Numbered from the stretch's first letter, positions 3,940 to 25,253 are shown. The stretch: 64,000 bases of DNA from Candidatus Niyogibacteria bacterium CG10_big_fil_rev_8_21_14_0_10_46_36 (GCA_002772995.1 PFCO01000008.1:23150-87149), one strand, 5' to 3'. The notes: generated by a model from the letters alone, not told the origin. Program-made: numbers and translations.

Positions 3940-4332
3940 ATGAAAGGATTTATCACCAACATAGAAAAGTTAACGCTTGAGAACACCGATTACCGGCGTG
4001 TCTTGTATACTGCGAAAAACAGCCAGCTGGTGCTTATGAGCCTCAAGCCCGGGGAAGAGATAGGCGAAGAGATACACGAGGAGCATGACCAGTTCATTCG
4101 TTTTGAAAGCGGGACGGCAAAAGTTATTTTGAACAAGACCGAAGAGCATGAAGTGGCGGGGGACGATGCGGTCGTTGTTCCTGCGGGCATGTGGCACAAT
4201 GTCATAAACACTGGAGACGAAGATCTCAAGCTCTACACTATCTATTCACCGCCCGAGCACAAAGACGGCACGCTCCAGCCGACAAAGGCGGACGAAAAAG
4301 AGGAGCATTTTGACGGACAGACGACCGAATAA
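3940..4332 (+). CDS. Cupin-domain protein (cupin_2 conserved barrel)
   Basis: The G-(X)5-H-X-H-(X)3-E...G-(X)5-P-X-G-(X)2-H-(X)3-N pattern (PGEEIGEEIHEEHDQ...VVVPAGMWHNVINTGDEDL) is a typical cupin. Terminator immediately downstream. Confidence 0.8.
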   Translation: MKGFITNIEKLTLENTDYRRVLYTAKNSQLVLMSLKPGEEIGEEIHEEHDQFIRFESGTAKVILNKTEEHEVAGDDAVVVPAGMWHNVINTGDEDLKLYTIYSPPEHKDGTLQPTKADEKEEHFDGQTTE

Positions 4333-6102: not shown

Positions 6103-6225
6103 ACGCGACAATATATATAAATAGGAGGTTTTATAAGACCTTATTTTTTGTTTTTGTCAAGGTTACCATGTGAGCATATTTGGGTATACTGCGTTATAGA
6201 TTTAGTTCACATAAAAGGAGGCTAT

Positions 6226-7269
6226 ATGACACACCAAGACATCCTTTCCGCGTTACGCGGCAGTTCGTCTCTTCTTGCAAAGCATTTAGAGCCGGAATTA
6301 TTAGATTCACTGGAAGGCGCACGCACAAGCCGTGGTTTTGCGATTGCTGATGTTATCCGTTCCGGGGTTGAAAACACCGATAGCGGAGTGGGGGTATACA
6401 TCCCTGACGAAGAATCCCTTGAGACCTTTGGTCCATTTTTAAAAAAGATAATTACGGCATACCATGGGTTTGGCGAGGGCGATTCGCATAGACGTGATTT
6501 TGCGGTTGCCGAAGATGAACTAAAAGATTTGGATCCGACGGGCGAGTTTATTATTTCTACGCGGGTTCGTGTCGGGCGGAATCTCAAAGGGTATCCCTTT
6601 GCGCCGGGCATCACTCAGGAAGAGCGGAAAGAGGTTGAACAAAAGATAGTCTCAGCACTCGGTACATTAACGGATGATCTTGCGGGCATGTATTATCCGC
6701 TTGCGGGGATGAAAGAAGATATACGCGCGCAGTTAGTCGCCGACCACTTTTTATTCAAGCAGGGCGACCGCTTTTTGGAGAGTGCCGGTGCAAACCGCGA
6801 CTGGCCTGATGCTCGGGGTATTTTTCATTCCGCAGACAAGAAGTTCTTGGTATGGGTGAACGAAGAAGACCAGCTGCGCATCATCTCTATGGAACAGGGC
6901 GGCAATCTTCACTCGGTGTACAACCGCTTGGTGCGCGCATTCACGGCGCTCGAGAAGAAGCTGGACTTTGCCTATTCCGAGAGATACGGATTCCTTTCAA
7001 GCTGTCCTACGAATTTAGGAACCGCAATGCGTGCAAGCGTGCATATTAAGCTTGCGGGGCTTGAGAAAAGCGGAAAGCTCAAAGAAGCATGCGATGCGCT
7101 TAAGCTTTCGGTGCGCGGGATACACGGAGAACATTCCGAAAGTGCAGGCGGCGTATATGATATTTCAAACAAGCAGCGGCTCGGCATTTCGGAAGCAGAC
7201 ATCATCCGGGTGCTTGCGAACGGCGTTCGTAATCTTATAGCGCTTGAGAAAAGCCACCTGAAAAAATAG
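6226..7269 (+). CDS. Arginine kinase (ATP:guanidino phosphotransferase), eukaryote-type, with N-terminal specificity domain
   Basis: Ribosome-binding site aaaaggagg 5 nt upstream of ATG 6226. Translation carries the phosphagen-kinase signature CPTNLGT, FLVWVNEEDQLRIISME, STRVRVGRNLKGYPF, and an N-terminal SGVENTDSGVGVY substrate-specificity loop. McsB-type protein-arginine kinases lack this N-terminal domain. Confidence 0.9.
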   Translation: MTHQDILSALRGSSSLLAKHLEPELLDSLEGARTSRGFAIADVIRSGVENTDSGVGVYIPDEESLETFGPFLKKIITAYHGFGEGDSHRRDFAVAEDELKDLDPTGEFIISTRVRVGRNLKGYPFAPGITQEERKEVEQKIVSALGTLTDDLAGMYYPLAGMKEDIRAQLVADHFLFKQGDRFLESAGANRDWPDARGIFHSADKKFLVWVNEEDQLRIISMEQGGNLHSVYNRLVRAFTALEKKLDFAYSERYGFLSSCPTNLGTAMRASVHIKLAGLEKSGKLKEACDALKLSVRGIHGEHSESAGGVYDISNKQRLGISEADIIRVLANGVRNLIALEKSHLKK

Positions 7270-7346
7270 CTATTCTATCTGTGCATAAACCGGGCATCCG
7301 CCCGGTTTTGTTTTTATATGTGGTGCTGTATGATGGGTATGCTTAT

Positions 7347-7694
7347 ATGTTCAGCCAATTGATTGCACAGATACACGCGGGTATCACCCCTGATGTTATG
7401 GGATGGTTTGTTACCGCAATCACCATTACATACTCTGTTATTGGTCTTCCTGCGCAAATCTATAAAAATTGGAAGCGCAAATCACTCGAAGGATTTTCAA
7501 ACATATTGTGCGTGTTGGTGTTTTTTACATTTTGGGGGTGGTTTTTGTACGGCATTATTCAGAGTGATAACTATATTATTATTGCAAACGCTCCGGGTGC
7601 CGTTGCGGTAACCGTTTTATTGTTCCAGATGTTTTTATACCGGAAAAATCCGGTACGGATTTCTGCAGGCACGTCTGCAAAAAATACTCTATGA
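7347..7694 (+). CDS. SemiSWEET/PQ-loop family 3-TM sugar transporter-like protein
   Basis: About 115 aa with three TM helices. LPAQIYKNWKRKSLEGFS matches the PQ-loop motif of bacterial SemiSWEETs. Start chosen at in-frame ATG 7347; the upstream in-frame part of the track ORF is not hydrophobic. Confidence 0.6.
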   Translation: MFSQLIAQIHAGITPDVMGWFVTAITITYSVIGLPAQIYKNWKRKSLEGFSNILCVLVFFTFWGWFLYGIIQSDNYIIIANAPGAVAVTVLLFQMFLYRKNPVRISAGTSAKNTL

Positions 7695-12347: not shown

Positions 12348-12557
12348 ATGAGAGAATATGTTTCAAATAGTGTATATGATTTGCGGAGCAAGCGGGGCAT
12401 CACACAGCAGGAGCTCGCAGACAGCCTAGGCGTTACCCGTCAGACCGTTATTGCGATAGAAAAAGGAAATTATATCCCTTCGGTGCTTTTAGCATTAAAG
12501 ATATCACGGTTTTTTAGGGAACCGGTTGAAAAAATTTTTATTTTTAGTAAGAAATGA
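12348..12557 (+). CDS. XRE-family helix-turn-helix transcriptional regulator (small Cro/C1-type)
   Basis: RGITQQELADSLGVTRQTVIAIEKGNYIPSVLLALKISRFF is a canonical HTH_3 domain (69 aa). Confidence 0.8.
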   Translation: MREYVSNSVYDLRSKRGITQQELADSLGVTRQTVIAIEKGNYIPSVLLALKISRFFREPVEKIFIFSKK

Positions 12558-12561
12558 TAGT

Positions 12562-12930
12562 ATGCACACTGTGTTTGCAAAGGAAATCATAATATCGGTC
12601 ATTCTTATAGCGCTTGGTATTCTGTTTTTGAATCCTTTTATGATATGGATGCCCGCACCCCTGCTCTATATGGTTAGCGCGGTATTCGTCATATTGTTCG
12701 CTGTGTTTTTGGTGTTTGTGTGGCGCGAGCGCGTGCGCGATGAACGCGAGGACTTGCATCGGATGATTGCGGCGCGCATCGGGTACTTGTTAGGCATGGC
12801 AACGCTTGCGAGCGTGCTTTTGGTGCAGGCGGTTATGACGCATCATACTGACCCCTGGATTATTGCGGCGCTTCTTATTATGGTCATGGGGAAGACCGTA
12901 GGCATGATCTATAGCAGGATGCGATATTGA
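12562..12930 (+). CDS. Hypothetical membrane protein (3 TM) paired with the XRE regulator
   Basis: In-frame ATG at 12562 just after the regulator's stop. The small-HTH plus membrane-protein pairing is a common two-gene module. Confidence 0.5.
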   Translation: MHTVFAKEIIISVILIALGILFLNPFMIWMPAPLLYMVSAVFVILFAVFLVFVWRERVRDEREDLHRMIAARIGYLLGMATLASVLLVQAVMTHHTDPWIIAALLIMVMGKTVGMIYSRMRY

Positions 12931-12943
12931 TCTATCCACAGGA

Positions 12944-12971
12944 GATGTAAAGCATGCTTTACATCTTTTTT
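12944..12971 (+). terminator. Rho-independent terminator, perfect 11-bp palindrome GATGTAAAGCAT/ATGCTTTACATC, then TTTTTT
   Basis: Seen in sequence. Confidence 0.85.
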
Positions 12972-13096
12972 AAAAGCGCTATACTGGTGAGTATACCCGA
13001 GGAGAAGCTTGCTCTCGGCATAAGAACTTTTGCCAGTTGCTTCTAACGGGACAGGGTCTTTTTATTTTTTATTAGCACTTATAGATTTTTTTAATC

Positions 13097-13678
13097 ATGA
13101 AATCAAAAGGATTTATTATGCCGCTTATTATTGTGATAATCGCGGCGGGTATTATTGGCGCTGTAGTGTACATGCAGCGATCATCCGATACATACAAGGG
13201 CGATGACGCCATGATGGAAGATGACATGACGAAGGATGATGCCATGATGGAAGGAGATGAAATGATGGAAGGAGACGCAACCATGGAAGTACCCGCGCCG
13301 GGCAATGAAGGGGTTGATGAAATGATGGAAGGCGGTGATGTGATGATGGAGGGTGAATCTCCAAAAACAGTTACTGTCACCTATACGCAGAATGGCTTTT
13401 CTCCGTCTCCCGTGAATGTGAGTGTCGGTGACACGGTCCGTTTTATGAATGAAAGCGGGCGCTCATTTTGGCCTGCATCCGCGTTTCATCCGACACACAC
13501 CGTATATCCCGGTTCGGACATAAAAAAATGCGGCACAGCAGAAGCAGCAACTATTTTTGACGCGTGCCGAGAAATTGTTTCCGGGCAGTCGTACTCTTTT
13601 ACGTTCACTGAAGCGGGGACATGGAATTATCATGACCATCTGAACGCATCGGAGTTTGGTTCTATTATAGTGAAATAG
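13097..13678 (+). CDS. Exported Met-rich protein with C-terminal cupredoxin-like domain
   Basis: N-terminal anchor or signal MKSKGFIMPLIIVIIAAGIIGAVV. Residues 36-87 contain 12 Met in D-x-MMEG-[DG] repeats. The C-terminal roughly 100 aa resembles a cupredoxin-like beta-sandwich (VTVTYTQNGFSPSPVNVSVGDTVRFMN...GTWNYHDHLNASEFGSIIVK), but the canonical type-1 copper Cys ligand is not obvious. Confidence 0.7.
   Translation: MKSKGFIMPLIIVIIAAGIIGAVVYMQRSSDTYKGDDAMMEDDMTKDDAMMEGDEMMEGDATMEVPAPGNEGVDEMMEGGDVMMEGESPKTVTVTYTQNGFSPSPVNVSVGDTVRFMNESGRSFWPASAFHPTHTVYPGSDIKKCGTAEAATIFDACREIVSGQSYSFTFTEAGTWNYHDHLNASEFGSIIVK
13202..13357 (+). repeat. In-frame tandem-like coding repeats encoding a Met-rich low-complexity region (four MMEG units)
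   Basis: Nucleotide repeats gatgccatgatggaaggagat / gaaatgatggaaggagac / gatgaaatgatggaaggcggt / gtgatgatggagggtgaa. Confidence 0.7.
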
Positions 13679-13680
13679 CC

Positions 13681-14295
13681 ATGCGCGAAACCCGCACAGG
13701 ATTTGGAACGGTCATTCTGATAGTTTTTGCGGCGATTATTCTTTTGGGTGGCGGCGCATACATTGTTTTAGAGAAGAACACCGCTACTGATCGCGGCAGC
13801 GAGGAGCGTATGGATACCGAAAAAGATACGGGCATGACGGAGGAAGAAGCACCGAAAAAAGATGATAAAGATAATACCGCGAGCAAGGATTCAATGGATG
13901 GCGCAGACACAGAGACATCTTTTAGCAGCGTGGTGCTTGCGGGGTCGGAGTCACTGCTCCTTGATTTTTCAAAAATGGATTACGAAAAAGCTCTTTCCTC
14001 AAAAAAGATAGTAGTGCTTTACTTTTATGCGAACTGGTGCCCGATATGTAAGGCGGAATTTCCGAAGATGCAATCGGCGTTCAACGGGTTTTCAGATGCA
14101 GATATTATCGGTTTCCGTGTGAACTTTAACGATAACGAAACCGACCAATACGAAAAAGACCTTGCGCGCCAGTTCGGTGTTGCCTATCAGCATACGAAAG
14201 TCATCTTGAAAAATGGAGAGCGGGTACTCAAATCTCCTGAGTCATGGGAAGAGAACCGCTACATATCCGAAATTAATGCCATAGCAGTGAATTAA
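13681..14295 (+). CDS. Membrane-anchored thioredoxin-fold thiol:disulfide oxidoreductase (TlpA/ResA-like)
   Basis: N-terminal TM helix; VVLYFYANWCPICKAEFPK carries a CxxC (CPIC) motif in a thioredoxin-like context. Confidence 0.8.
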   Translation: MRETRTGFGTVILIVFAAIILLGGGAYIVLEKNTATDRGSEERMDTEKDTGMTEEEAPKKDDKDNTASKDSMDGADTETSFSSVVLAGSESLLLDFSKMDYEKALSSKKIVVLYFYANWCPICKAEFPKMQSAFNGFSDADIIGFRVNFNDNETDQYEKDLARQFGVAYQHTKVILKNGERVLKSPESWEENRYISEINAIAVN

Positions 14296-14297
14296 TT

Positions 14298-15002
14298 ATG
14301 CTTGATGTGTCGTTCATCGTCGCTTTTTTAGCAGGGTTGGTATCGTTTTTATCTCCCTGTGTGCTCCCGATAGTCCCGGGCTTTTTGGCGTATCTTTCAG
14401 GAACATCTACTTCGGAATCCGCAAGCCGGCTCCGTATCTTTTTGAACAGCTTTGTGTTTGTTCTCGGATTTTCGGTCGTATTTGCCCTGTTGGGTGTGCT
14501 CCTGAACACGCTTTTAGAATCGGTTGCGTATGATGTTCAGATATGGCTCGCGAGGATTGGCGGTGCGATCATTATCTTTTTTGGGTTGTATCTTGCTGGG
14601 CTCTTTCATATCCCGTTCTTAGAACAGCAGCATAAATTCGCCGTAAAAAAGAAATTCGCAAATTCATACATCACCTCATTTTTATTCGGCGCTGCGTTTG
14701 CTGCCGGGTGGACTCCATGCGTGGGTGCAGCGCTTGGCGCTATTCTTGGACTGGCGGCCACCGCTCCCGGGAAAGCATTTTATCTCTTGTTTATGTATTC
14801 ATTAGGGCTTGGCGTTCCGTTTCTGATCGTGGGGCTTTTTGTTTCCCGCGCAGAGGCTTATATCAACCGGTATGCAGGAGCACTTTCGTATGTAAGCAAG
14901 GCATTCGGCATCATTCTGATCGTTCTCGGAGTGCTTGTTTTTACCCAGAGCTTGAATTTGATAGCAAATTTCGGTTTTCTTAATAACTTGTTGCTGCAGT
15001 GA
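14298..15002 (+). CDS. ccdA: Cytochrome c-type biogenesis / thiol-reductant transfer membrane protein CcdA (DsbD transmembrane-core family)
   Basis: LSPCVLPIVPGF and GWTPCVGAALGA are the two conserved Cys motifs of CcdA/DsbD-beta. Six TM helices. Confidence 0.85.
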   Translation: MLDVSFIVAFLAGLVSFLSPCVLPIVPGFLAYLSGTSTSESASRLRIFLNSFVFVLGFSVVFALLGVLLNTLLESVAYDVQIWLARIGGAIIIFFGLYLAGLFHIPFLEQQHKFAVKKKFANSYITSFLFGAAFAAGWTPCVGAALGAILGLAATAPGKAFYLLFMYSLGLGVPFLIVGLFVSRAEAYINRYAGALSYVSKAFGIILIVLGVLVFTQSLNLIANFGFLNNLLLQ

Positions 15003-16132
15003 TGACTGTATCAAAACAAACAATCTTTTCTGTTGTAGTACTGGTGCTTGTTGTGGGTGCGATAGTGTATCTTGAATCACGGAAAGCGGACATCCCGTCA
15101 TTATTGGGGAACCAAGATGTAACTATCTTGAACGAAGGAGAGCGCGTTGCCGAAAAAGAAAAAAAATTTGAACCGGCAAAAGAAATATCAACGCCGGACG
15201 GATTTATCAATACCGATGGTGTTACGATAAGCGAGCTTATCGGTAAAAAAATCATCTTGGTTGATTTTTGGACATATTCCTGTATCAATTGCCAGCGCAC
15301 TACCCCGTATTTAAATTCATGGTATGAAAAATATGCGGACGACGGGCTGGTTATTTTGGGTCTTCACACGCCCGAGTTTGAATTTGAGAAAGATTATGAC
15401 AACGTGGCTCGTGCGGTGGAGAAATTTGGCATTGAATATCCGGTTGTATTAGATAACGACTATTCTACATGGCGATCGTATGAGAACCGGTATTGGCCAC
15501 GCAAATACTTGATAGATATAGATGGCTTTATTGTGTATGACCACATTGGTGAAGGAGCGTACGAAGAAACGGAACAGAAGATAGTAGAATTGTTAAATGA
15601 ACGGAGCGCCGTATTAGGAGAAGATGCGGTTACGCTGGACGAAAAAAACCCGGAGTATATCCAGGATGTTGAGTTTGATAAGGTGCAGTCTCCCGAAATG
15701 TATTTTGGGTACGACCGTTTGCAATATATTGGAAATACATTTTTACGCTCATGTTTGGATTCGGTTTGCGATTTTGATGCAAAAACAGATATTCAGCGAA
15801 ATACATTTAATTTAGATGGCTCGTGGCAGATAGGGCCGGAGGATACGGTGCTCAAGAACGGCGAGGGTGCAATCATACTCGGGTTTTCTGCGTCAAAAGT
15901 AAATCTTGTTGCCGGGACTGACGGTGGCGAGATAGAAGCAGAGATATATCTTGATGGAGAGCGGGTTGATGCGGCATACAAGGGCGCGGATGTTGATGAA
16001 AATGGTGTTGTGCGGTTCGGCGCACATGACCTGTATAATCTGATAGATTTGCATGGAGACTACGGCGAGCATGTCCTCTGGATAATGATAAAGCAGCCCG
16101 GACTCCAGGCATTTGCGTTTACGTTCGGGTAA
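14999..16132 (+). CDS. Membrane-anchored thioredoxin-like protein (CINC active site) with an extra C-terminal beta-rich domain; DipZ C-terminal-like
   Basis: N-terminal TM helix; WTYSCINCQRTTPYL CxxC motif; YWPRKYLIDIDGFIV is redoxin-like. A C-terminal domain of about 150 aa resembles the carbohydrate-binding-like domain found after the thioredoxin domain in mycobacterial DipZ (recognition from memory). Overlaps the ccdA stop by 4 nt. Confidence 0.75.
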   Translation: MMTVSKQTIFSVVVLVLVVGAIVYLESRKADIPSLLGNQDVTILNEGERVAEKEKKFEPAKEISTPDGFINTDGVTISELIGKKIILVDFWTYSCINCQRTTPYLNSWYEKYADDGLVILGLHTPEFEFEKDYDNVARAVEKFGIEYPVVLDNDYSTWRSYENRYWPRKYLIDIDGFIVYDHIGEGAYEETEQKIVELLNERSAVLGEDAVTLDEKNPEYIQDVEFDKVQSPEMYFGYDRLQYIGNTFLRSCLDSVCDFDAKTDIQRNTFNLDGSWQIGPEDTVLKNGEGAIILGFSASKVNLVAGTDGGEIEAEIYLDGERVDAAYKGADVDENGVVRFGAHDLYNLIDLHGDYGEHVLWIMIKQPGLQAFAFTFG

Positions 16133-16153
16133 TATGCAAAATGTATAAATAAC

Positions 16154-16179
16154 AAAAATACCGCCTATGCGGTATTTTT
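16154..16179 (+). terminator. Rho-independent terminator (ATACCGC-ctat-GCGGTAT, then TTTTT)
   Basis: Seen in sequence between the thioredoxin-like gene and msrA. Confidence 0.8.
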
Positions 16180-16193
16180 GTTATGATGACGAT

Positions 16194-16736
16194 ATGAATA
16201 AAAAAGTAATTGTTTTTGGCGGAGGCTGTTTTTGGTGCACCGAAGCCGTGTTCAAAATGCTTAAGGGTGTTCTTTCTGTAACCCCGGGTTATGCGGGCGG
16301 TACGACAAAAGACCCTTCCTATGAAGACGTATCAGCGCATAAAACAGGACATGCCGAAGTCGTGCGCATTGAATATGATGCTGATATCATGCCGCTCCAT
16401 GATTTGTTAACGGTATTTTTTGCAACGCATGACCCGACAACGCCCAACCGCCAGGGAAATGATGTCGGTGAACAGTATCGCTCCATTATTTTGTACACGG
16501 ACGAAGAGCAAAAAAAAGAAGCGGAAGCGTTTATCGAAAAATTAAACGGATCAATGGAGGAAGGCGAGCCAATAATAACCGCAATACAGCCGCTTGATGC
16601 GTTTTATGAAGCAGAAGATTATCACAAAGATTATTTTGAGAAAAATCCGCAAAATCCCTATTGTCAAATAGTTATCAACCCCAAGCTCGACAAGGTCCAA
16701 AAGGAATTTGCAGAGCTGGTAAAAGAAAATGAATAG
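16194..16736 (+). CDS. msrA: Peptide methionine sulfoxide reductase MsrA
   Basis: GGGCFWCTEAVF active-site motif, GYAGG, HAEVVRIEYD. ATG 16194 is chosen because the longer track ORF overlaps the terminator hairpin. No signal peptide. Confidence 0.9.
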   Translation: MNKKVIVFGGGCFWCTEAVFKMLKGVLSVTPGYAGGTTKDPSYEDVSAHKTGHAEVVRIEYDADIMPLHDLLTVFFATHDPTTPNRQGNDVGEQYRSIILYTDEEQKKEAEAFIEKLNGSMEEGEPIITAIQPLDAFYEAEDYHKDYFEKNPQNPYCQIVINPKLDKVQKEFAELVKENE

Positions 16737-17274
16737 TATGCACGAACACACTCATGGGCAGGAACACGCGGGACATGTGGATACGTCAGCGATTCGCCGT
16801 TCATTCCGCGATTTTATTCCCCTTGTGGTTATTTTTGGGGTTATTGCTCTTTTCACGATTATGCAAAGCATGCGAGCGGGTGCGTGGGAGACCGCGTATC
16901 TTATGCGCAATTTTATGGGAGCATTTTTTATCGTATTCGGAGGATTTAAAATCATACGATGGAAGGGCTTTGTGGATGCATACCAGATATACGACATTGT
17001 CGCAAAACGAAGTAGGGTGTATGGGTATACATACCCCATAATAGAGTTAGGGCTTGGGTTTTCGTATCTTTTTTCGTTCCAACTTGCTCTTGTTCAAGTA
17101 ATAACAATAGCAATCATGTGCATCGGGGCTATTGGAGTAGGGCAGGAGCTAGTGAAAAAGAACACCATCCCATGTGCTTGTCTTGGTGTGGTGTTTAAAA
17201 TACCTATGACCAAAGTAACGTTTTTTGAAGACATTCTCATGGCGGCAATGGCTGCGGGGATGTTTTTTGTGTAA
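16729..17274 (+). CDS. MauE/DoxX-like redox-associated membrane protein with His-rich N-terminus
   Basis: Four TM helices and a conserved-looking PCACLG Cys pair near the C-terminus. The N-terminal MHEHTHGQEHAGH is His-rich. Family assignment is by resemblance only. Confidence 0.55.
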   Translation: MNSMHEHTHGQEHAGHVDTSAIRRSFRDFIPLVVIFGVIALFTIMQSMRAGAWETAYLMRNFMGAFFIVFGGFKIIRWKGFVDAYQIYDIVAKRSRVYGYTYPIIELGLGFSYLFSFQLALVQVITIAIMCIGAIGVGQELVKKNTIPCACLGVVFKIPMTKVTFFEDILMAAMAAGMFFV

Positions 17275-17287: not shown

Positions 17288-18049
17288 ATGTTTGAATTAA
17301 CTAACAGGGTGGCGTTAGTGACAGGAGCGCGTCGAGGTATGGGGCGTACGCATGCGCTTGCGTTGGCGCATCAAGGCGCTTCCGTTGCGGTAACTGACAT
17401 TGATGCGAATGAGTGCATGCCGGTTGTGGAAGAAATAACAAAAGCGGGAGGCAAGGCGGCATGTTTCAAAATGGATGTTTCCAATAAAGCAGAAGTGGAA
17501 GCAGTGTTTGATGATGTTATCAAACAGTTTGGGAGGCTCGATATTTTGGTGAACAATGCGGGTATTTATAAATCGCGCCCCGCGCTAGATATAACGGAAA
17601 AAGAATGGGACCAAATGATAGATATAGATCTCAAGGGGCAATTTTTGTGCGCTCAGCGCGCAGCACGCGAGATGGCAAAAAATTCTTGGGGTAGGATTAT
17701 TAACATTGCCTCAATTGCTTCGGGGCAGACGGGTGTGGGTATTTTGGGTGGCACCCACTATACAGCGGCAAAGGGCGGAGTTATCGGGATGACGGAATCG
17801 CTTGCTATAGAATTTGCGCCATTGGGTATTTTGGTAAACGCTATAGCCCCGGGCGCTATTGATACGCCGATGGTAAATGCAGCAGAGATGCCAAAGGAGG
17901 CAATGGAGGGGCTCATTGCTTCTTTGCCGCTGAAACGGATAGGAAAGTCCGAAGAAGTGTCTGCCGCTGTAGTGTTTTTGGCTTCGGATGAGGCAAGCTA
18001 TATTACCGGTTCTACGATATATGTAGATGGCGGGTGGCTTGCGGCGTAG
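17288..18049 (+). CDS. SDR-family oxidoreductase (FabG-like 3-oxoacyl-ACP reductase family)
   Basis: TGARRGMG Rossmann motif, NNAG, catalytic Y-x3-K (YTAAKGG), PGAIDTPM. Start at ATG 17288 after the upstream stop. Confidence 0.85.
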   Translation: MFELTNRVALVTGARRGMGRTHALALAHQGASVAVTDIDANECMPVVEEITKAGGKAACFKMDVSNKAEVEAVFDDVIKQFGRLDILVNNAGIYKSRPALDITEKEWDQMIDIDLKGQFLCAQRAAREMAKNSWGRIINIASIASGQTGVGILGGTHYTAAKGGVIGMTESLAIEFAPLGILVNAIAPGAIDTPMVNAAEMPKEAMEGLIASLPLKRIGKSEEVSAAVVFLASDEASYITGSTIYVDGGWLAA

Positions 18050-18232
18050 TGTTCAGTTATCCACTTGTAATTTTTGCGGGAAAGAGTACTATGAAGATAG
18101 CAGTACTCTTATATAGGGCGGTTCCGATCAAATAATTTTTTATATGCGTCCAAATCGCGAAAATCCGAGGATTTTATGCCGAGGGCGCACACTATATAAG
18201 AGCGGACTAACTGCCAAAAAGGAGTACTGCAA

Positions 18233-18263
18233 CAAAAAAATCCCACATGCTGGGGATTTTTTT
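18233..18263. terminator. Bidirectional rho-independent terminator (ATCCC-acatgctg-GGGAT, flanked by A-run and T-run)
   Basis: Seen in sequence, downstream of the minus-strand ZIP gene. Confidence 0.75.
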
Positions 18264-18288
18264 GTTTTTAAGATACTGTTTTTAGGAG

Positions 18289-19053
18289 CTACTCAAAGAA
18301 AAGCAAGGAGAACATTGCGGCAATTCCTACGAGGATAAAGAGTATTTCAAGGAGCGATTGTTTTGTGCCGTGCTGCTTATGAAGCTCGGGGATAAGATCT
18401 GCGGTTGCAATATAGATAAAGTTTCCCGCTGCAAGCGCAATGATAAAGGGGAGCAGCGGCTCTATGGTACCCCCAAAGATAACTACAAGAAGAACGCCCG
18501 TTATAGCAACTAGTGCAGAGAGGAAATTAAACCAGAGCGCTTTTGCTTTTGAATATCCTGCGTGAATCAGTATGCCAAAATCCCCGATTTCTTGAGGAAT
18601 TTCATGAAGGATTATCGCAAGTGTTGTCGCAATGCCCACCTCAACACTTATAAGATAGCTTGCGCCGATAATAATGCCGTCTACGAGGTTGTGGAGGCCG
18701 TCCGAAAGCAGAATGAGCCTGCCCACAGGAAGAATGTCTTGGCAGTCTTCGCAATCTGTAGGTTTTTCGTGGTGGTGATGGTGCCAGCCGAGTATTTTTT
18801 CAAATATAAAAAAGAATACAATGCCCGCGATAACGAGAAGCGGAATAAGCGGCGAGCCGCCGCCCGTCTCGAGTGCCTCGGGAATCAGGTGCAAAAAAGC
18901 GTCGCCGAGAAGCGCACCTATCGCAAGCGCGACAAGAAAAAATACCGCTTTGCGTATCTTTTTTTCATCTATTGAGATGATGATAAGTCCGATAAGCGCG
19001 ATAAGGCTTACCGCAAAAACACTTATGAGAGCATAGAATGTGTGTGTTTCCAT
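18289..19053 (-). CDS. ZIP-family divalent metal (zinc) transporter, ZupT-like
   Basis: HHHHHE His-rich loop and HEIPQEIGDFGILI signature of ZIP transporters. Ribosome-binding site AAGAGGA upstream on the minus strand. Confidence 0.85.
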   Translation of the reverse strand: METHTFYALISVFAVSLIALIGLIIISIDEKKIRKAVFFLVALAIGALLGDAFLHLIPEALETGGGSPLIPLLVIAGIVFFFIFEKILGWHHHHHEKPTDCEDCQDILPVGRLILLSDGLHNLVDGIIIGASYLISVEVGIATTLAIILHEIPQEIGDFGILIHAGYSKAKALWFNFLSALVAITGVLLVVIFGGTIEPLLPFIIALAAGNFIYIATADLIPELHKQHGTKQSLLEILFILVGIAAMFSLLFFE

Positions 19054-19133
19054 ATATCCTCTTTTTATATTAAAATGGACCTTTGCATTTGACTATAGCG
19101 CATACGCACACCATGTCAAGTAGATGCGAATTA

Positions 19134-19163
19134 TTTGCATTTATTTTGTGTGTGCGCTATTAT
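19134..19163 (+). promoter_or_regulatory. Candidate promoter TTTGCA-18nt-TATTAT for the small Cys-rich ORF, within the Zur/ZIP divergent region
   Basis: Seen in sequence; weak -35 box. Confidence 0.3.
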
Positions 19164-19192
19164 ATTGAAAATCCCAAACCAAGGAGGTATAT

Positions 19193-19381
19193 ATGAGCAA
19201 GACCACTGATGGCCTGAGTGTTTTTTTGTGCCATACGGGGAGTTGTTGTGCGAGCATCAGTTCCACAGAAGACGGAGGTATGCGTATTGAGGATGCTGAT
19301 AAGCCAGAACGCGGCGGTATCACTCTTACCCGGGATGAGGTTGCGGAGCTTAAGCGAGCAATACAGAACGGCAATATATAG
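19193..19381 (+). CDS. Small Cys/His-containing protein (62 aa), stand-alone unit in the Zur/ZIP locus
   Basis: Strong ribosome-binding site AAGGAGG 5 nt before ATG and its own terminator hairpin at 19394-19417. N-terminal motif FLCHTGSCC resembles the second small ORF at 21654. Confidence 0.55.
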   Translation: MSKTTDGLSVFLCHTGSCCASISSTEDGGMRIEDADKPERGGITLTRDEVAELKRAIQNGNI

Positions 19382-19390
19382 TTCTTTTAT

Positions 19391-19417
19391 AAGGCCGCGC
19401 ACGAACGCGGCTTTATT
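19391..19417 (+). terminator. Rho-independent terminator (GCCGCG-cacgaa-CGCGGC, then TTTATT)
   Basis: Seen in sequence. Confidence 0.7.
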
Positions 19418-19433
19418 GTGACATTGTGTGGGA

Positions 19434-19439
19434 TATAAT
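19434..19439 (+). promoter_or_regulatory. TATAAT -10 hexamer 6 nt upstream of the Fur-family ATG, implying a leaderless mRNA
   Basis: Seen in sequence: ggaTATAATggtcgtATG. Confidence 0.4.
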
Positions 19440-19445
19440 GGTCGT

Positions 19446-19865
19446 ATGAAGCAAAAAAAAGAAAAATTTAAAACAATACTTCATGATGCGGGTTATAGAG
19501 TTACGGCAGAGAGAATGGCGACGCTCCTGCTTCTTTCTCGTTCAAAAAAGCCCCTTTCCGTGCATGATATCGCGCGCGTATTGCGAAGCGTGCTTGACCA
19601 AGCGACAGCATACCGCATACTTCGATTATTTGAGCGATCAGGAATTGTCCGGCGTGTTGAATTTGGTAAAGGACGCGTGTATTACGAAATAGCTGATGCG
19701 AAAGACCATCACCATATCGTATGCACTGAATGCGGTGCTATAGAGGATTTTGAAGGATGTACCGCAGAACGCATAGAAAAAGAGGCGCTTAAACAATCAA
19801 GGCGCTTTTCTTCCGTGCGGAAACACTCGTTAGAATTATTCGGCGTTTGCAAATCATGCGCATAA
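19446..19865 (+). CDS. zur: Fur-family metalloregulator, probably Zur
   Basis: Fur-family winged-helix N-terminus with a C-terminal HHHIVCTECG...C metal site. Divergent from a ZIP zinc transporter, which suggests Zur. Confidence 0.8.
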   Translation: MKQKKEKFKTILHDAGYRVTAERMATLLLLSRSKKPLSVHDIARVLRSVLDQATAYRILRLFERSGIVRRVEFGKGRVYYEIADAKDHHHIVCTECGAIEDFEGCTAERIEKEALKQSRRFSSVRKHSLELFGVCKSCA

Positions 19866-20977
19866 ATGCACGCATTATATTGCATATGTGGTGTGCCGGT
19901 CTTTTTATTCTAGGGCCTGTATTTGTTTTGGCTCAAGAACAAGCAATTCCCGAAATGTTTCGATTGAAAGTGCTGGATATTACTCAGGAAGGAGAACGCC
20001 CCATTATCGGGACGGACGCCAAAGCGTTTTTTCAAAATATACGAGGCGAAGTTCTTTCGGGCGAGAAAAAAGGCGATACTATAGAACTTGAAAACGATAG
20101 GATGCGTCTTCGTGTGGGAGATACTATATTTGTGCGCGCGTTGGAAGCGCCCACCGGGGAAACATTTTATACTGTGGATGACGTCGATAGGCGCAATTCT
20201 TTGTTCTTTTTTGTAGGATTATTTATGTTGCTTGTGATCGTATTCGGGGGGAAGCAAGGCATCCGCGCGCTTATGAGTCTTGCCGGCAGTTTTTTTGTTA
20301 TTTTTTATTTTTTGCTTCCGTCTATTCTTTCGGGCGTATCGCCACTCTTGGTGAGCGCAGGTGTTTCTATTGTTATTCTGGTGATCGCTATTTATTTTAC
20401 TCATGGCTTGACGCGCACATCAACAGCGGCACTCCTCGGTACCATTGTTACTATTTGTGTTACCGTGCTTTTAGCGCTCATTTCGGTACGGGCAACCCGT
20501 TTATCCGGTTTTACCGATGACACAAGTGTTTTTTTGAATTTTAATACCGCGGGCGCTTTGGATTTTCAGGGATTATTACTGGGAGCCATTATTATTGGTG
20601 TTTTGGGACTTCTTGATGATATAGCAATAACGCAAGCGGCTGCGGTAAAAGAGATTTTTCATGTGGACGCCTCGCTTTCGCGGAAAGATGTGTATGCTCG
20701 CGCGCTTCGTATAGGCAAGGAGCATGTAGGAGCGTTAGTGAATACGCTTGCACTTGCGTATACGGGCGCGGCACTTCCGTTATTGCTTCTCTTTTATGGA
20801 TCTGAAGCATCTGTTTTTTTGATAATAAATAGAGAAATATTTGCATCAGAAATTATCCGCACTATGGTAGGAAGTATTGGCATTATTCTTGCGGTGCCCA
20901 TTACTACGGGTCTTGCGGTATTATTTTTGGTGCAGAAAAAAAGAAGGGATCCGGAAAAAGGAAACATCTGTGCTTGA
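19856..20977 (+). CDS. YibE/F-like polytopic membrane protein
   Basis: N-terminal TM helix, extracytoplasmic segment of about 100 aa, then 6 TM helices. Resemblance to the YibE/F family is from memory only. Start is ambiguous (19847 or 19856) and overlaps the zur stop. Confidence 0.55.
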   Translation: MRINARIILHMWCAGLFILGPVFVLAQEQAIPEMFRLKVLDITQEGERPIIGTDAKAFFQNIRGEVLSGEKKGDTIELENDRMRLRVGDTIFVRALEAPTGETFYTVDDVDRRNSLFFFVGLFMLLVIVFGGKQGIRALMSLAGSFFVIFYFLLPSILSGVSPLLVSAGVSIVILVIAIYFTHGLTRTSTAALLGTIVTICVTVLLALISVRATRLSGFTDDTSVFLNFNTAGALDFQGLLLGAIIIGVLGLLDDIAITQAAAVKEIFHVDASLSRKDVYARALRIGKEHVGALVNTLALAYTGAALPLLLLFYGSEASVFLIINREIFASEIIRTMVGSIGIILAVPITTGLAVLFLVQKKRRDPEKGNICA

Positions 20978-22705: not shown

Positions 22706-22960
22706 ATGATGCGTAAACACGGAAAGGGGAATCATTTTTTCTTCGGTACTACCACCATGGGTGAAAAGGGCCAGGTTGTTGTTCCTGCGAAAGCCCGCAA
22801 AGCGATGGAGCTTAAAAAGGGAGAAAAACTTCTTGTGTTCGGCACGGGGCATGACATGCTCGCGTTCACTAAGCTTTCTCATATTGAAGAGTTTGCGGCA
22901 CACCTCTCAAAGCGTTTGGGCGCTATCCGCTCGATCGTAAGAAAAACAAGATCAAAGTAA
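22706..22960 (+). CDS. AbrB/MazE/SpoVT-family small DNA-binding protein
   Basis: GQVVVPAKARKAMELKKGEKLLV matches the swapped-hairpin AbrB-type domain. The stop overlaps the HlyD start (TAATG). Confidence 0.7.
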   Translation: MMRKHGKGNHFFFGTTTMGEKGQVVVPAKARKAMELKKGEKLLVFGTGHDMLAFTKLSHIEEFAAHLSKRLGAIRSIVRKTRSK

Positions 22961-24537
22961 TGCATTATCCTTCTATGTTGATTTTTTCTTTTGTACGAAG
23001 ACATATAATAGTGAGCATCATTATTGCCGTAGTTGTTATCGGCGGCGGTTTTTTGATATTTGGTGGCGGAGACAAATCTACAATCGATTTTGCTGAGGTT
23101 CTTCGCCGCGATCTCGTGCAAGAAGTAAGCGTTACCGGCAACGCGGAACCCGCGCATGCAGTTGATCTTGCGTTTGAGCGCACGGGAAGGGTGGCGCGTA
23201 TTTATGTTAGTGTCGGAGAAGAGGTATCCGCGGGCGCATCGTTGGTTGCGCTTGAAAATAGCGATATAGTTGCGCAATTACGGGATGCGGAGGCTCGGGT
23301 GAGCATTGAACAAGCGGTGCTCGATGAACTTTTGCGCGGGACTCGTCAGGAAGAGGTCCGGGCGCAGGAGATCAAGGTAGAAAACGCACAAACAACGCTT
23401 AATGACGCAAAGAAAAACCTGGTTGATGTTATTCTCGATGCATTTACAAAGGGGGATGATGCGATACGCAATAAGCTTGATCAAATTTTCGTAAATCCTC
23501 AGGGAGGAAATTATAATATTCATTTTACGGTTAACAATCCTCAGCTTGAAAGCGACATTGAAACAGGGCGTGCCTCCATAGAAACAACTCTTGATGCATG
23601 GCAGGTCTCGCTTGCCGGATTGTCAGCGCAAAACGATCCATCCTCTTTTTACGCGATAGCAAAAACAAATATTACCGACATCCGTTCTTTGTTGGACAAA
23701 GCGGCGCTTGTCGTAAATCAGACACAGGCAGGACCCACTATCTCGCAAGCAACGCTTGACGGGTATAAAACGGACATAGCTGCGGCGCGTACTGTGGTCA
23801 ATACTGCCTCGTCAAACCTTTCTTCGGCTCAGGAAAAATTACAAAATGCGATATCCTCTCTTTCATATGAAGAACAGCAGCTTATAGTCAAAACAGCAGG
23901 GGCTACGTCGGAAGCTATTCGCGTACAAGAAGCAAAATTAGACCAGGCAGAAGCAGCGGTAATCGCGCGGCAAGCAGATCTCGCAAAAACCATATTGCGC
24001 TCGCCGCTTCACGGCATTATCACCAAGCAAGACACAGAGGTAGGCCAGATTGTTACCGCGGGGCCCCACGTTGTTTCGCTGATATCCGAATCGGAATTCG
24101 AAATAAAAGTGAATATTCCGGAAACTGATATTACAAACGTGAAGATAGGGAATAGCGCGCGGGTGACTCTTGATGCCTATGGAAAAGAAGAAGAATTTGG
24201 CGCACATGTTGTTATGATAGACCCGGCGGAAACGGTCATCGAAGGAGTGGTGACATACAAAACAACGCTTCAATTTGATGAACGGGATGAACGCATAAAA
24301 CCGGGCATGACCGCGAATGTTGATATTTTAACTGCGGAACGGAAAAACGTGCTTGTTATCCCCACACGATCCGTTTCTACGAAGAACGGGACTCAATTTG
24401 TACGCGTCCTCCACGAGGACGGTTCTATAGAGGAGCGCGCCATAGAAACGGGTCTTCGCGGATCATTTGGCGATATAGAAGTGACAAGTGGGCTTAAGGA
24501 AGAGGAGAAGATCGTCACTTTCTTTGACGAAGAGTAG
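22960..24537 (+). CDS. HlyD-family periplasmic adaptor (membrane fusion protein, MacA-like)
   Basis: N-terminal TM helix, long coiled-coil region and C-terminal beta-barrel motifs; immediately followed by ABC ATPase and FtsX permease genes. Confidence 0.85.
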   Translation: MHYPSMLIFSFVRRHIIVSIIIAVVVIGGGFLIFGGGDKSTIDFAEVLRRDLVQEVSVTGNAEPAHAVDLAFERTGRVARIYVSVGEEVSAGASLVALENSDIVAQLRDAEARVSIEQAVLDELLRGTRQEEVRAQEIKVENAQTTLNDAKKNLVDVILDAFTKGDDAIRNKLDQIFVNPQGGNYNIHFTVNNPQLESDIETGRASIETTLDAWQVSLAGLSAQNDPSSFYAIAKTNITDIRSLLDKAALVVNQTQAGPTISQATLDGYKTDIAAARTVVNTASSNLSSAQEKLQNAISSLSYEEQQLIVKTAGATSEAIRVQEAKLDQAEAAVIARQADLAKTILRSPLHGIITKQDTEVGQIVTAGPHVVSLISESEFEIKVNIPETDITNVKIGNSARVTLDAYGKEEEFGAHVVMIDPAETVIEGVVTYKTTLQFDERDERIKPGMTANVDILTAERKNVLVIPTRSVSTKNGTQFVRVLHEDGSIEERAIETGLRGSFGDIEVTSGLKEEEKIVTFFDEE

Positions 24538-24538
24538 T

Positions 24539-25249
24539 ATGGCTTTTATTGAGCTTAAAAATATAGCAAAAGAATATTCGGACGGAACCCGGGCTTTGCG
24601 CGGGGTTTCTTTTGATGTGGATGAAGGCGAATTTGTGGGGATTATGGGGCCTTCCGGATCGGGGAAATCTACGCTTTTACACATCCTCGGATTTTTGGAT
24701 ACGCAATCAAAAGGGACTTACACATTTGAACGCAAGACGTTTGATGATTACGGCCCGGAGGGCATTGCGCGGCTGCGTAATGAAAAAATGGGATTCGTGT
24801 TCCAGATGTTTAATTTGCTTTCCCGCGCGAGCGTATTGGAGAACGTAAAACTTCCCCTCACATATTCTTCGGTGCCGTCATCAGAGTGGGACAAGCGGGC
24901 GCTTGAAGCGATTGAATCAGTAGGGCTCGCGCATCGCGTGGAACATGAGCCATCAGAACTTTCTGGGGGGGAAAAACAACGCGTTGCTATAGCCCGCGCG
25001 CTGGTTAATAATCCCGAGATTATTTTTGCCGATGAACCGACTGGTAACCTGGATTCGAAATCAGGGAAGGCGGTCATGGAGATTTTGCAGGAGCTGAATG
25101 AAAAAAGGGGCCATACGGTATTTTTAATAACGCACGAAACATATACCGCGGAACACGCAAAACGGATCATTACCATTCGCGATGGCGAGATAGCAAGTGA
25201 CTTTGAAGTGAAAAAACGCAGATGGGCCCGCGATCATTTTGCAAAGTAA
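24539..25249 (+). CDS. ABC transporter ATP-binding protein (MacB/LolD-type)
   Basis: Walker A GPSGSGKST, ABC signature LSGGEKQRVAIARA, Walker B IIFADEPTG. ATG 24539 is 2 nt after the HlyD stop. Confidence 0.9.
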   Translation: MAFIELKNIAKEYSDGTRALRGVSFDVDEGEFVGIMGPSGSGKSTLLHILGFLDTQSKGTYTFERKTFDDYGPEGIARLRNEKMGFVFQMFNLLSRASVLENVKLPLTYSSVPSSEWDKRALEAIESVGLAHRVEHEPSELSGGEKQRVAIARALVNNPEIIFADEPTGNLDSKSGKAVMEILQELNEKRGHTVFLITHETYTAEHAKRIITIRDGEIASDFEVKKRRWARDHFAK

Positions 25250-25253
25250 TAGT

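Follow-up and report, generated by a model that had tools for sequence, protein, structure and literature searches.

A putatively operator-controlled operon for a probable extracytoplasmic thiol relay with a Met-rich tether in Candidatus Niyogibacteria

Genes and features of the locus

The locus lies in a 64,000-nucleotide stretch of DNA (the window) from Candidatus Niyogibacteria, an uncultivated groundwater bacterium, and carries a Parcubacteria-type system. All six genes that the first-pass annotation had placed in a thiol-redox cluster are real, and the domains assigned to them stand in Pfam and profile matches. Gene content, gene order and conservation, the operator and promoter, the membrane anchors and the loss of type-1 copper ligands described below were computed directly. 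With the genes on either side, the features are as follows.

12348..12557, plus strand: XRE-family (HTH_3) regulator, 69 aa, candidate operon repressor (Pfam HTH_3, 50.7 bits)
12562..12930, plus strand: 4-TM membrane protein, 122 aa, candidate sensor or co-regulator (four hydrophobic segments)
12945..12964, no strand assigned: conserved 20-bp perfect palindrome ATGTAAAGCATGCTTTACAT, operator-like, overlapping the -35 box
12958..12985, plus strand: promoter of the sigma-70 type, TTTACA-16-TATACT, serving genes 1-4 (10 of 12 positions match the consensus)
13097..13678, plus strand: gene 1, anchored Met-rich-tethered non-blue cupredoxin-like protein
13112-13168, plus strand: N-terminal anchor of gene 1
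13187-13360, plus strand: Met-rich acidic tether of gene 1
13361-13675, plus strand: non-blue cupredoxin-like domain of gene 1
13487-13498, 13529-13531, 13565-13567 and 13631-13639, plus strand: HPTH, Cys145, Cys157 and HDH in the gene 1 domain
13681..14295, plus strand: gene 2, membrane-anchored thioredoxin with a WCPIC active site at 14035-14049 (Thioredoxin, 41 bits)
14298..15002, plus strand: gene 3, CcdA (DsbD transmembrane core) with Cys21 and Cys141 (DsbD_TM, 66.6 bits)
15002..16132, plus strand: gene 4, anchored DipZ-C-type thioredoxin plus Thioredoxin_10, with CINC at 15281-15292 (profile and structure matches)
16149..16184, plus strand: terminator-like hairpin with A-rich and U-rich arms and a 16-bp stem (-20.7 kcal/mol, z = -7.5)
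16194..16736, plus strand: gene 5, cytoplasmic MsrA of the GCFWC type (PMSR, 212 bits)
16738..17274, plus strand: gene 6, membrane protein of the MauE family, His-rich at its N-terminus and bearing an invariant CAC at 17173-17181 (MauE, 52.2 bits; cut-off 27)
17288..18049, plus strand: SDR oxidoreductase, probable final gene in the msrA unit (adh_short_C2, 236 bits)
26563-27363, same window: VKOR-Trx fusion, opposing oxidising branch

Genes 1-4 are tightly packed, with gaps of 2 nt and 2 nt followed by a 1-nt overlap between the ccdA stop codon and the probable ATG start of gene 4 at 15002 (TGATG, 15000-15004). Upstream, their unit reaches to the HTH gene, the membrane-protein gene and the operator and promoter, which together span 12945-12985. 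The palindrome is unique within the window, where 0.24 matches are expected at three or fewer mismatches. The XRE-type HTH_3 gene adjoins this conserved inverted repeat, which overlaps the target promoter, and its stop codon lies 4 nt from the gene for the 4-TM membrane protein, with which it is always paired. The membrane protein matches no Pfam or NCBIfam family; a WRE..DEREQLH.M loop and an H.D.W motif are kept in five orthologues. The regulator and its obligatory membrane partner would most likely repress the promoter and release it upon an envelope signal.

The division into two expression units at the hairpin after gene 4, proposed in the earlier annotation, is borne out by the z score of this element and by a hairpin at the equivalent position in genome locus L002 that has a different G+C core (z = -6.5). 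The consensus terminator scan made no call at 16149-16184. The msrA gene probably starts at 16194 (MNKKVIVFGGGCFWC) and not at 16167 within the hairpin. MsrA has no TM segment and, as had been noted from the start, no signal sequence, and because its first codon is only 11 residues before the GCFWC active site and no hydrophobic segment is present, the enzyme is assigned to the cytoplasm. The SDR gene begins 13 nt past the gene 6 stop codon and is followed by another hairpin at about 18232-18265. The msrA and MauE-like genes, probably with the SDR gene, form a separate adjoining unit.

The Met-rich segment of gene 1 is exceptional, with 13 Met in a 64-residue linker as against at most 5 Met per 30 aa in the other ORFs of the window. 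Its protein belongs to a large, uncharacterised family found only in CPR bacteria and DPANN archaea. Four His, an Asp/Asn and two Cys are invariant in this family, the Cys pair across 103 aligned members, and the four-His/Asp site could bind Zn. A Met-rich tether is found in only 16 of 102 family members overall.

The two anchored thioredoxins each have a single N-terminal TM helix and no lipobox according to hydrophobicity and charge heuristics. Since K/R residues precede the helix and an acidic stretch follows it, these heuristics place the anchors N-in/C-out, and the products of genes 1, 2 and 4 all share this charge bias under the positive-inside rule. Gene 2 had been described as TlpA-like; the anchored thioredoxin fold is upheld, but the domain is closer to classical thioredoxins and PDI a-domains (E = 5e-10 against a PDI a-domain) than to TlpA. 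Its WCPxC sequence resembles DsbA/glutaredoxin-type motifs, and gene 2 could therefore be an oxidase or isomerase instead of a reductase. The proposal that CcdA and gene 4 constitute a split DipZ agrees with the DsbD_TM core of the former and with the match of the latter to 2HYX (E = 5e-51), in which YSCINCQR is kept. Gene 4 has at least 7,669 homologues, mostly in CPR bacteria, that are annotated as thiol-disulfide isomerase or redoxin.

Conservation of the operon and its operator

The palindrome recurs at the equivalent site in four other genome loci (L002, L079, L088 and L089) with TATCCACAG just before it. Its overlap with the -35 box is kept across all five of these divergent loci, whose proteins are 50-66% identical, and orthologues of the XRE regulator (60-81% identity) occupy the equivalent position in the other four. 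The genes of L002 and L079 are colinear with the window, and in these three genomes the operator is followed first by the cupredoxin gene, which carries the Met-rich tether, and then by the thioredoxin gene. Tethers of this kind are present in all five operator-bearing loci; the first gene of L088 consists of an anchor and a Met-rich tail only (76 aa).

Metagenomes were probed with the operator sequence only, and the 94 matching stretches represent 69 unique contexts. As the operator sequence is set by the probe itself, independent observations come only from the genes on either side and from the -10 box. The HTH and membrane genes lie upstream of the operator in 42 of 51 evaluable contexts, with four more having the operator before the HTH gene; an extra operator copy upstream of the HTH gene is found in L088, L089 and L079 and in six of the 69 metagenome contexts. 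Downstream, Trx/CcdA/DipZ-C genes follow in 37 of 40 contexts (93%), and DipZ-C is present in 24 of the 26 that extend at least 2.6 kb in this direction. The promoter layout is common to 79 operator contexts, with a -35 box of TT(T/G)ACA, a spacer of 16-17 nt and, outside the probe, a -10 box that is mostly TATACT. Thioredoxins of the operator-controlled operons always have a WCPxC motif, and a Met-rich acidic tether occurs on 31 of 39 of them (79%) and on none of 26 DipZ-C proteins.

From the gene content of these 69 contexts, the core system consists of the regulator, the operator, a Met-rich-tethered WCPxC thioredoxin, CcdA and DipZ-C. What marks the Parcubacteria system is an acidic, Met-rich tether that links the membrane anchor to the first exported domain; it is usually borne by the thioredoxin but here by an added cupredoxin-like protein. 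The coupling of the relay to an exported Met-rich segment that was originally suggested is thus strongly supported by the tethers at five of five operator genome loci and on most metagenome operon thioredoxins. Conservation of the Met-rich protein itself beside ccdA and tlpA holds for the tether but not for the cupredoxin family, which adjoins ccdA in only 3 of 80 genomes, has a DoxX gene as its usual partner and is absent from all 69 metagenome operator contexts.

Gene 6 had also been counted as part of the system, and this assignment is not sustained. MauE genes occur in 0 of the 69 operator contexts, and none of the six sampled contexts of the MauE subfamily to which gene 6 belongs contains msrA. 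The relatives of gene 6 include HMBD, HMA or YHS fusions and make up a metal-associated subfamily with an invariant IPCACLGVVFKIPMT motif and invariant Met residues. Their contexts include a CusBA-like RND operon and YHS/Csp, Trx and DsbA-like genes.

A proposed reducing relay and the alternatives to it

On balance, we favor a reading of genes 1-4 as an operator-controlled operon for an extracytoplasmic reducing relay, with envelope defence against copper or oxidant damage to thiols as its likely role. A relay of extracytoplasmic thiols was already proposed in the first-pass annotation, and it fits the presence of CcdA beside two N-terminally anchored thioredoxin-fold proteins that are N-in/C-out by charge bias. 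We infer that electrons would pass from cytoplasmic thioredoxin to the two CcdA cysteines and then to the anchored CINC DipZ-C protein, the anchored WCPIC thioredoxin or both. The reduced anchored thioredoxins would in turn reduce or reshuffle wrongly oxidised cysteines of exported proteins. The cupredoxin-like protein would act as an accessory that handles metal, and its Cys pair makes it a plausible client of the relay. In our reading the tether would serve as an arm that binds Cu(I) or buffers oxidants; it could also be a mere flexible spacer of lineage-specific composition.

Several neighbors point to metals, as do the domain fusions and gene contexts of the gene 6 subfamily. The gene 1 family adjoins a P1B-1-type CopA at 7 of 80 loci and, in archaea, ZIP, a CopM-like DUF305 protein is encoded in L002, and a CopA gene lies 4 kb from ccdA-dipZC in L091. 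In E. coli CusF, the Met ligands become oxidised under copper stress (PMC9302797). None of CopA, CopZ or CsoR is encoded in the window. ZIP and Fur-family genes occur nearby, and zinc or iron would fit as well as copper.

TlpA maintains ScoI and the CuA site of CoxB in the reduced state needed to insert copper, and by analogy the anchored thioredoxins might be dedicated to maturing the cupredoxin-like protein, managing Cys145/Cys157 while its metal site is loaded. The family-wide invariance of this Cys pair and the place of the cupredoxin gene, first in the operon and 2 nt from the thioredoxin gene, are compatible with this role, as is the thiol-redox gene (VKOR, small WCPHC Trx, CcdA or DipZ-C) found within 4 kb in 19 of 80 family loci. 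We nevertheless consider it unlikely. Since 69 of the 69 sampled operons lack a cupredoxin, the relay is not dedicated to it, and the DipZ-C protein is CPR-wide whereas the family is so seldom beside ccdA. In addition, the Cys pair flanks a short helix within a loop insertion and has the look of a structural disulfide, for which oxidation, not reduction, would be needed.

A mere juxtaposition in a compact genome, with no functional tie among the cupredoxin-like gene, the thiol relay and the msrA unit, is quite improbable. The preference of the cupredoxin family for DoxX and the place of the MauE subfamily and msrA outside the core neighborhood would suit such a juxtaposition. However, three genomes keep the cupredoxin gene between operator and thioredoxin gene with the operon's own Met-rich tether, which is uncommon in the family as a whole, and L016 clusters dipZC, ccdA, msrA, cupredoxin, DoxX and VKOR in a different order.

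We give similarly low odds to surface repair of Met sulfoxide in the S. pneumoniae style, in which CcdA and the anchored thioredoxins would drive an Msr that repairs the Met-rich protein outside the cell. The gene set does resemble ccdA1-etrx1-msrAB2 (PMC3914529), exported Met-rich segments are obvious oxidation targets, and msrA is found within about 2 kb of ccdA-dipZC in five of eight genome loci and immediately before the cupredoxin gene in the rearranged L016. Yet msrA accompanies only 4 of the 69 operator-controlled operons, a strong hairpin stands between it and gene 4, and no other Msr or MsrPQ-type genes were seen in the annotated stretch. Pfam and NCBIfam searches for an MsrA-MsrB fusion detected only PMSR (MsrA). 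The analogy to CcdA-Etrx-Msr systems drawn earlier fails on its defining feature because MsrA has no export signal; MsrA is outside the CcdA-fed chain and is a neighbor only.

Cytochrome c maturation by System II, with CcdA and a ResA-like thioredoxin keeping apocytochrome CxxCH cysteines reduced, can be practically dismissed: gene 4 matches NCBIfam ResA (60 bits) and a PDB ResA (E = 4e-13), but its score is far under the family cut-off of 170, ResB/CcsA families are absent among the Pfam-annotated genes over about 20 kb, and CxxCH occurs in only two ORFs of the 64 kb, both of which seem to be non-coding frames overlapping larger ORFs.

Comparison with known systems

The gene 1 domain has a cupredoxin beta-sandwich fold, and it was considered as a type-1 blue copper protein and rejected. 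In a profile alignment to amicyanin, Cys92 is replaced by D180 (Asp/Asn in the family), the second His (His95) by N, and the position of Met98 is not conserved, so that only the first His (H131) of the ligand set shared with plastocyanin is kept. In their place are new invariant residues (H134, H179 and H181), in an HPxH ... YHDH pattern that resembles multicopper-oxidase motifs, and the invariant Cys145/Cys157 pair in an inserted loop. Assignment as a multicopper oxidase was also rejected; these enzymes have at least two cupredoxin domains, whose four His-rich motifs build a trinuclear cluster in addition to a type-1 site. Among the closest known systems are non-blue binders with the cupredoxin fold, such as nitrosocyanin, CupA, the EfeO/FtrB domain and B. 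anthracis Cupredoxin_1 (4HCF).

As in mau clusters (MauE/MauD), the locus combines a MauE-type membrane protein with a thioredoxin-like protein and an amicyanin-like cupredoxin. Methylamine dehydrogenase genes are found neither in the window nor in the six sampled contexts of the gene 6 subfamily, and this subfamily differs from MauE by its N-terminal metal-binding domains and invariant CAC. Gene 6 has no detectable kinship with the DoxX protein that usually accompanies the gene 1 family (hhalign probability 1.5%).

In the Scs systems of Salmonella, Proteus and Caulobacter and in DsbC-dependent copper tolerance of E. coli, a DsbD-type reductase feeds envelope thioredoxin-fold proteins, and a link to thiol damage caused by copper has been proposed. 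The locus shares the reductase and the thioredoxin-fold proteins, which are predicted to lie in the envelope; its copper link is circumstantial. It differs in its Met-rich tether and regulator; no ScsA, DsbA/DsbG-fold ScsC or other DSBA-type domain is present in the cluster and its annotated flanks.

Met-rich periplasmic copper/silver binders are repaired by MsrPQ under copper stress (PMC9302797, PMC4335983). The present system resembles Met-rich CusF, PcoE/SilE and CopM (PMC9302797, PMC4335983) in its exported Met-rich sequence, in a context of metal or oxidation stress and in the tendency of msr genes to be nearby. In contrast to these folded chaperones, its Met-rich part is a low-complexity, acidic tether carried by an anchored thioredoxin or cupredoxin, and it has no periplasmic Msr.

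The S. pneumoniae CcdA1-Etrx1-MsrAB2 and CcdA2-Etrx2 systems (PMC3914529) place a CcdA conduit beside two surface-tethered thioredoxin-fold proteins, as is predicted for the locus, with an msr gene near and a role in envelope oxidative-stress defence like the one proposed here. MsrAB2 is surface-displayed and encoded in the CcdA-Etrx operon (PMC3914529), whereas the Msr here is cytoplasmic, is MsrA only, lies behind a hairpin and is not conserved with the operon. The thioredoxins here are also anchored by TM helices without a lipobox, one is of the DipZ-C type with Thioredoxin_10, and the system adds Met-rich tethers, a palindromic operator and an XRE/membrane-protein regulator.

With M. tuberculosis DipZ (Rv2874) and DsbD, the locus shares a two-Cys CcdA-like core, a TlpA-like thioredoxin with an identical YSCINCQR and a C-terminal Thioredoxin_10 domain. 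Here these parts are divided between two genes that overlap by 1 nt, fused forms being found in the sister operons L149 and L170, and the operon also encodes an extra WCPxC thioredoxin and a protein with a Met-rich tether.

Operon architecture and a shared candidate operator

The window is part of a Candidatus Niyogibacteria (CPR/Patescibacteria) genome. All six consecutive plus-strand ORFs listed in the first-pass annotation exist in the window, and domain scans of the window proteins bear out its domain calls for genes 2 to 6. Gene 1 encodes the cupredoxin-like protein, whose sequence is 100% identical to COU47_03325. Gene 2 encodes a thioredoxin (41 bits) with the active site WCPIC, and gene 3 encodes CcdA (DsbD_TM, 67 bits), with its cysteines at Cys21 and Cys141. 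The product of gene 4, with a start that we correct to 15002, matches AhpC-TSA/Redoxin together with Thioredoxin_10 (105 bits). It also resembles the soluble portion of DipZ from M. tuberculosis (E 5e-51), including a conserved active site YSCINCQR. The products of genes 1, 2 and 4 each have a single N-terminal hydrophobic helix with K/R before it and an acidic stretch after it, a charge pattern which suggests that all three may be anchored N-in/C-out. At the site of the terminator proposed after gene 4 there is a hairpin at 16149-16184 (-20.7 kcal/mol, z -7.5), and the closest relative, L002, has a hairpin with a different G+C core at the equivalent position.

The following features precede gene 1:

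12348-12557, XRE-type HTH regulator gene (69 aa), directly 5' of the four-TM protein gene
12562-12930, gene for a four-TM protein (122 aa), between the HTH gene and the operator
12945-12964, perfect 20-bp palindrome ATGTAAAGCATGCTTTACAT, the putative operator, between the four-TM protein gene and gene 1

The promoter (TTTACA-16-TATACT) has its -35 box inside the right half of the palindrome. The order of HTH gene, membrane gene and palindrome is kept in the loci L002, L079, L088 and L089, all of which encode proteins only 50-66% identical to those of the window. Three of these four loci carry a second copy of the palindrome 5' of the HTH gene, which suggests that this gene may be autoregulated. 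The leader of gene 1 (111 nt, 12986-13096) has a possible hairpin fold (-21.5 kcal/mol). Some 70 nt of it are missing in L002 and L079, and this extra segment has no repeat elsewhere in the window. A riboswitch or other known RNA in the leader or around the gene 4 hairpin was considered and rejected (no Rfam match, either at the gathering threshold or at E <= 1).

As an independent test of the unit, a metagenome collection was scanned with the probe CCACAG-N3-5-ATGTAAAG-N4-CTTKACAT, which returned 94 stretches from 80 loci and 69 unique contexts. Where at least 800 nt of upstream sequence was available, both the HTH gene and the membrane gene were present in 42 of 51 contexts, and in another four the operator stood in front of the HTH gene. 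Downstream, a thioredoxin, CcdA or DipZ-C was encoded in 37 of the 40 contexts with at least 900 nt, and DipZ-C in 24 of the 26 with at least 2.6 kb, some of these being fused, full-length DipZ proteins. The -10 box, which lies outside the probe, reads TATACT at a spacing of 16-17 nt in most contexts. These thioredoxins have a WCPxC active site without exception. Most (31/39) also carry a Met-rich tether, defined by a threshold of at least six Met per 30 aa, with a median of seven Met; none of the 26 DipZ-C proteins does. Neither the gene 1 family nor the subfamily of gene 6, the MauE-family gene of the window, occurs in any of the 69 contexts.

Within the window the tether is found on gene 1 alone, where it has 13 Met in 64 residues. 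It is present on both the cupredoxin and the thioredoxin in L002 and L079, and on the thioredoxin in L089. In L088 the first operon gene, in the place of the cupredoxin, encodes a 76-aa protein (4064-4294) that is no more than an acidic, Met-rich tail on a membrane anchor. What recurs in the operon is the Met-rich tether and not the cupredoxin, since the tether is seen across loci and the cupredoxin family mostly lacks it (Met-rich linker in only 16 of 102 members). The earlier suggestion of a Met-rich exported partner for the relay was thus right in substance, but it was pinned on the wrong conserved element. Co-occurrence of cupredoxin and ccdA fails as a general rule (3/80 genomes, 0/69 operons) and is kept as a lineage variant. 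In extracytoplasmic thioredoxins, Met-rich tethers may be a functional element that has so far been overlooked.

A family of non-blue cupredoxins

The C-terminal domain of gene 1 belongs to a family with 494 matches in a word-indexed search, which is found in 343 species-level genomes and comprises 985 clusters at 50% identity (E <= 1e-30). The family spans Parcubacteria, other CPR bacteria and DPANN archaea. The residues that never vary are H131, P132, H134, Y137, P138, C145, D155, C157, W176, H179 and H181, which include the HPTH and HDH motifs and a Cys pair. In a profile alignment, the first amicyanin ligand His53 corresponds to H131 of gene 1. The type-1 copper site is lost, because the position of the ligand Cys92 is taken by D180 (D or N across the family) and His95 and Met98 are not conserved. 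The literature searched holds no prior description of Patescibacteria cupredoxins.

The pattern HPxH ... W-x-Y-H-D-H recalls multicopper-oxidase motifs. In weak local matches, HDH falls on positions 156/158 of two-domain laccases, which are ligands of the trinuclear cluster. This motif likeness is real, but the overall fold is closer to plastocyanin and amicyanin than to multicopper-oxidase domains, and an origin as a multicopper-oxidase relic is a low-probability idea. A redox-active metal site in the family is favored by P0323, a 266-aa member in which a canonical type-1 blue-copper domain (YYCSVGNHRAQGM) is attached by a Met-rich linker to a domain of the gene 1 type. Two other members are also fusions: P0241 pairs the domain with a degenerate copy of itself, and P0284 pairs it with another cupredoxin-like domain that contains LHLHG.

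The main partner of the family is a DoxX-family protein of about 120 aa, encoded on the same strand in 33 of 78 evaluable loci. Its gene starts -10 to +16 nt from the end of the cupredoxin gene in 25 of 34 cases, and the two look like a conserved two-gene module. The order of cupredoxin and then DoxX occurs at L007 (1224-1973), L054, L050 and 31 other loci from both CPR and DPANN genomes. Among 80 family loci, VKOR is present at 11, a P1B-1-type CopA near 7, and a small WCPHC thioredoxin near 6. In a Taylorbacteria locus (L016, 7334-11127), the minus strand carries dipZC and ccdA, after which msrA, cupredoxin, DoxX and VKOR genes lie on the plus strand. In two archaeal loci (L026 and L065), a ZIP gene adjoins the cupredoxin gene and a TlpA-like thioredoxin gene follows. 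DUF192 lies between the DoxX and cupredoxin genes in a second Niyogibacteria genome (L003, 2565-3931), and P0204 is a fusion of DUF192 with a protein of the MauE subfamily to which gene 6 belongs. DUF192 hints at a tie between the cupredoxin-DoxX module and that subfamily.

The cluster count, the invariant motifs, the DoxX coupling, the VKOR neighbors and the P0323 fusion together prompt a reading that we consider speculative and rather unlikely. Gene 1 would represent an undescribed large class of single-domain cupredoxins, restricted to CPR and DPANN, in which a His-ligated, type-2 or multicopper-oxidase-like redox metal site has replaced the blue-copper site. Such a cupredoxin and the DoxX membrane protein to which it is translationally coupled would make up a minimal oxidoreductase of the cell surface in organisms without respiratory chains. 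It might be a cuprous oxidase, or a sink that passes the electrons of thiol oxidation to oxygen or another oxidant. In this genome the cupredoxin would have been wired into a CcdA/thioredoxin stress operon. A non-blue cupredoxin family of about 1,000 clusters with a fixed DoxX partner across two domains of life is a candidate new metal centre.

The second unit, msrA and gene 6

Gene 5 encodes MsrA (212 bits; start probably at 16194) with no hydrophobic segment, and the protein is predicted to be cytoplasmic. The coupling of msrA to the relay, drawn in the first-pass annotation by analogy with CcdA-Etrx-Msr surface methionine-sulfoxide repair, is not supported, because of this predicted location and because proximity to ccdA-dipZC is loose. 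Its appearance as a core member came from a small sample (5/8 genome loci) and fell to 4/69 in the operator-based sample. The loose but recurrent closeness fits a shared stress theme rather than an electron relay.

Gene 6 (MauE family, 52 bits; start corrected to 16738) belongs to a tightly conserved subfamily with an invariant IPCACLGVVFKIPMT motif, several invariant Met residues, and N-termini that are His-rich or carry HMBD, HMA or YHS domains. Sampled contexts of this subfamily include a CusBA-like RND operon, YHS with Csp, YHYH, a thioredoxin, and DoxX with a DsbA-like protein; msrA is absent from all of them. Gene 6 is not the DoxX partner of the cupredoxin in another position: an HMM of that partner family has no match in the window, and the two groups have no detectable relation (hhalign probability 1.5%). 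No prior description joining MauE, copper and DoxX was found in the literature searched. An SDR gene starts 13 nt after gene 6, and a hairpin then ends the unit.

The proposed relay and its relation to known systems

In CcdA/DsbD systems, cytoplasmic thioredoxin reduces CcdA, which in turn reduces extracytoplasmic thioredoxin-fold proteins. Electrons in the present operon would likewise pass from cytoplasmic thioredoxin through CcdA to its extracytoplasmic thioredoxin-fold proteins. About 9 kb from the operon is a further thiol-redox gene:

26563-27363, plus strand, VKOR (81 bits) with a thioredoxin-like domain fused at its C-terminus

From this fusion, the envelope is predicted to have an oxidizing, disulfide-forming branch as well, with both thiol pathways encoded in the genome. 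The operon of genes 1 to 4 could then serve as the opposing reducing or isomerizing branch. Cytochrome c maturation is rejected as its role (no ResB/CcsA among the Pfam-annotated genes over about 20 kb, and no credible CxxCH protein in the window).

The most likely trigger would be copper- or oxidant-induced thiol damage, given that the tethers are acidic and Met-rich, that gene 6 has metal-binding relatives, that related loci have CopA, ZIP and DUF305 neighbors, and that, as a precedent, methionine ligands are oxidized under copper stress in E. coli (PMC9302797). Confidence in the architectural and regulatory description of the operon is high; for the copper/oxidant role the chances are about even. 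If that role is correct, it offers a handle on survival at oxic or metal-rich interfaces and against host-derived oxidants. Otherwise, the regulon and its operator still count among the few defined CPR transcriptional circuits.

Several other features were observed. At 12560-13186, near a ZIP gene, L002 encodes a CopM-like protein of the DUF305 family whose sequence includes a Met/His-rich stretch, MGHGMGMMMHSGMM. Directly downstream of the cluster in the window (18289-20977) are genes for a ZIP transporter (minus strand), a Fur-family regulator and a YibE/F membrane protein, and a MacAB-like efflux set (HlyD/CusB-type membrane-fusion protein, ABC ATPase and MacB/FtsX permease) occupies 22960-26498 on the plus strand. 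A full-length ATP:guanido phosphotransferase of the arginine/creatine-kinase family (6148-7269, plus strand, 252 bits) is encoded in this CPR genome, adjoined by a SWEET/MtN3-type transporter gene (7281-7694). GC skew is positive over the first 60 kb and about zero or negative beyond, and the main gene orientation flips from plus to minus at about 59.9 kb; a replication terminus or origin could lie here (about 60000-64000).

No earlier description of this operon variant was found in the literature searched. These results define a conserved, regulated Parcubacteria envelope module that consists of an XRE regulator, a membrane partner, an operator, a Met-rich-tethered WCPxC thioredoxin, CcdA and DipZ-C, and its signatures in the DNA operator and the proteins are open to test. 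Its parts are of known kinds, namely CcdA, DipZ, anchored thioredoxins, MsrA and an XRE regulator. What is new is the conserved regulon architecture with its operator, the Met-rich tether as the hallmark of the first exported protein of the operon, and the recruitment, specific to the window, of a non-blue cupredoxin out of a large uncharacterized CPR/DPANN family.
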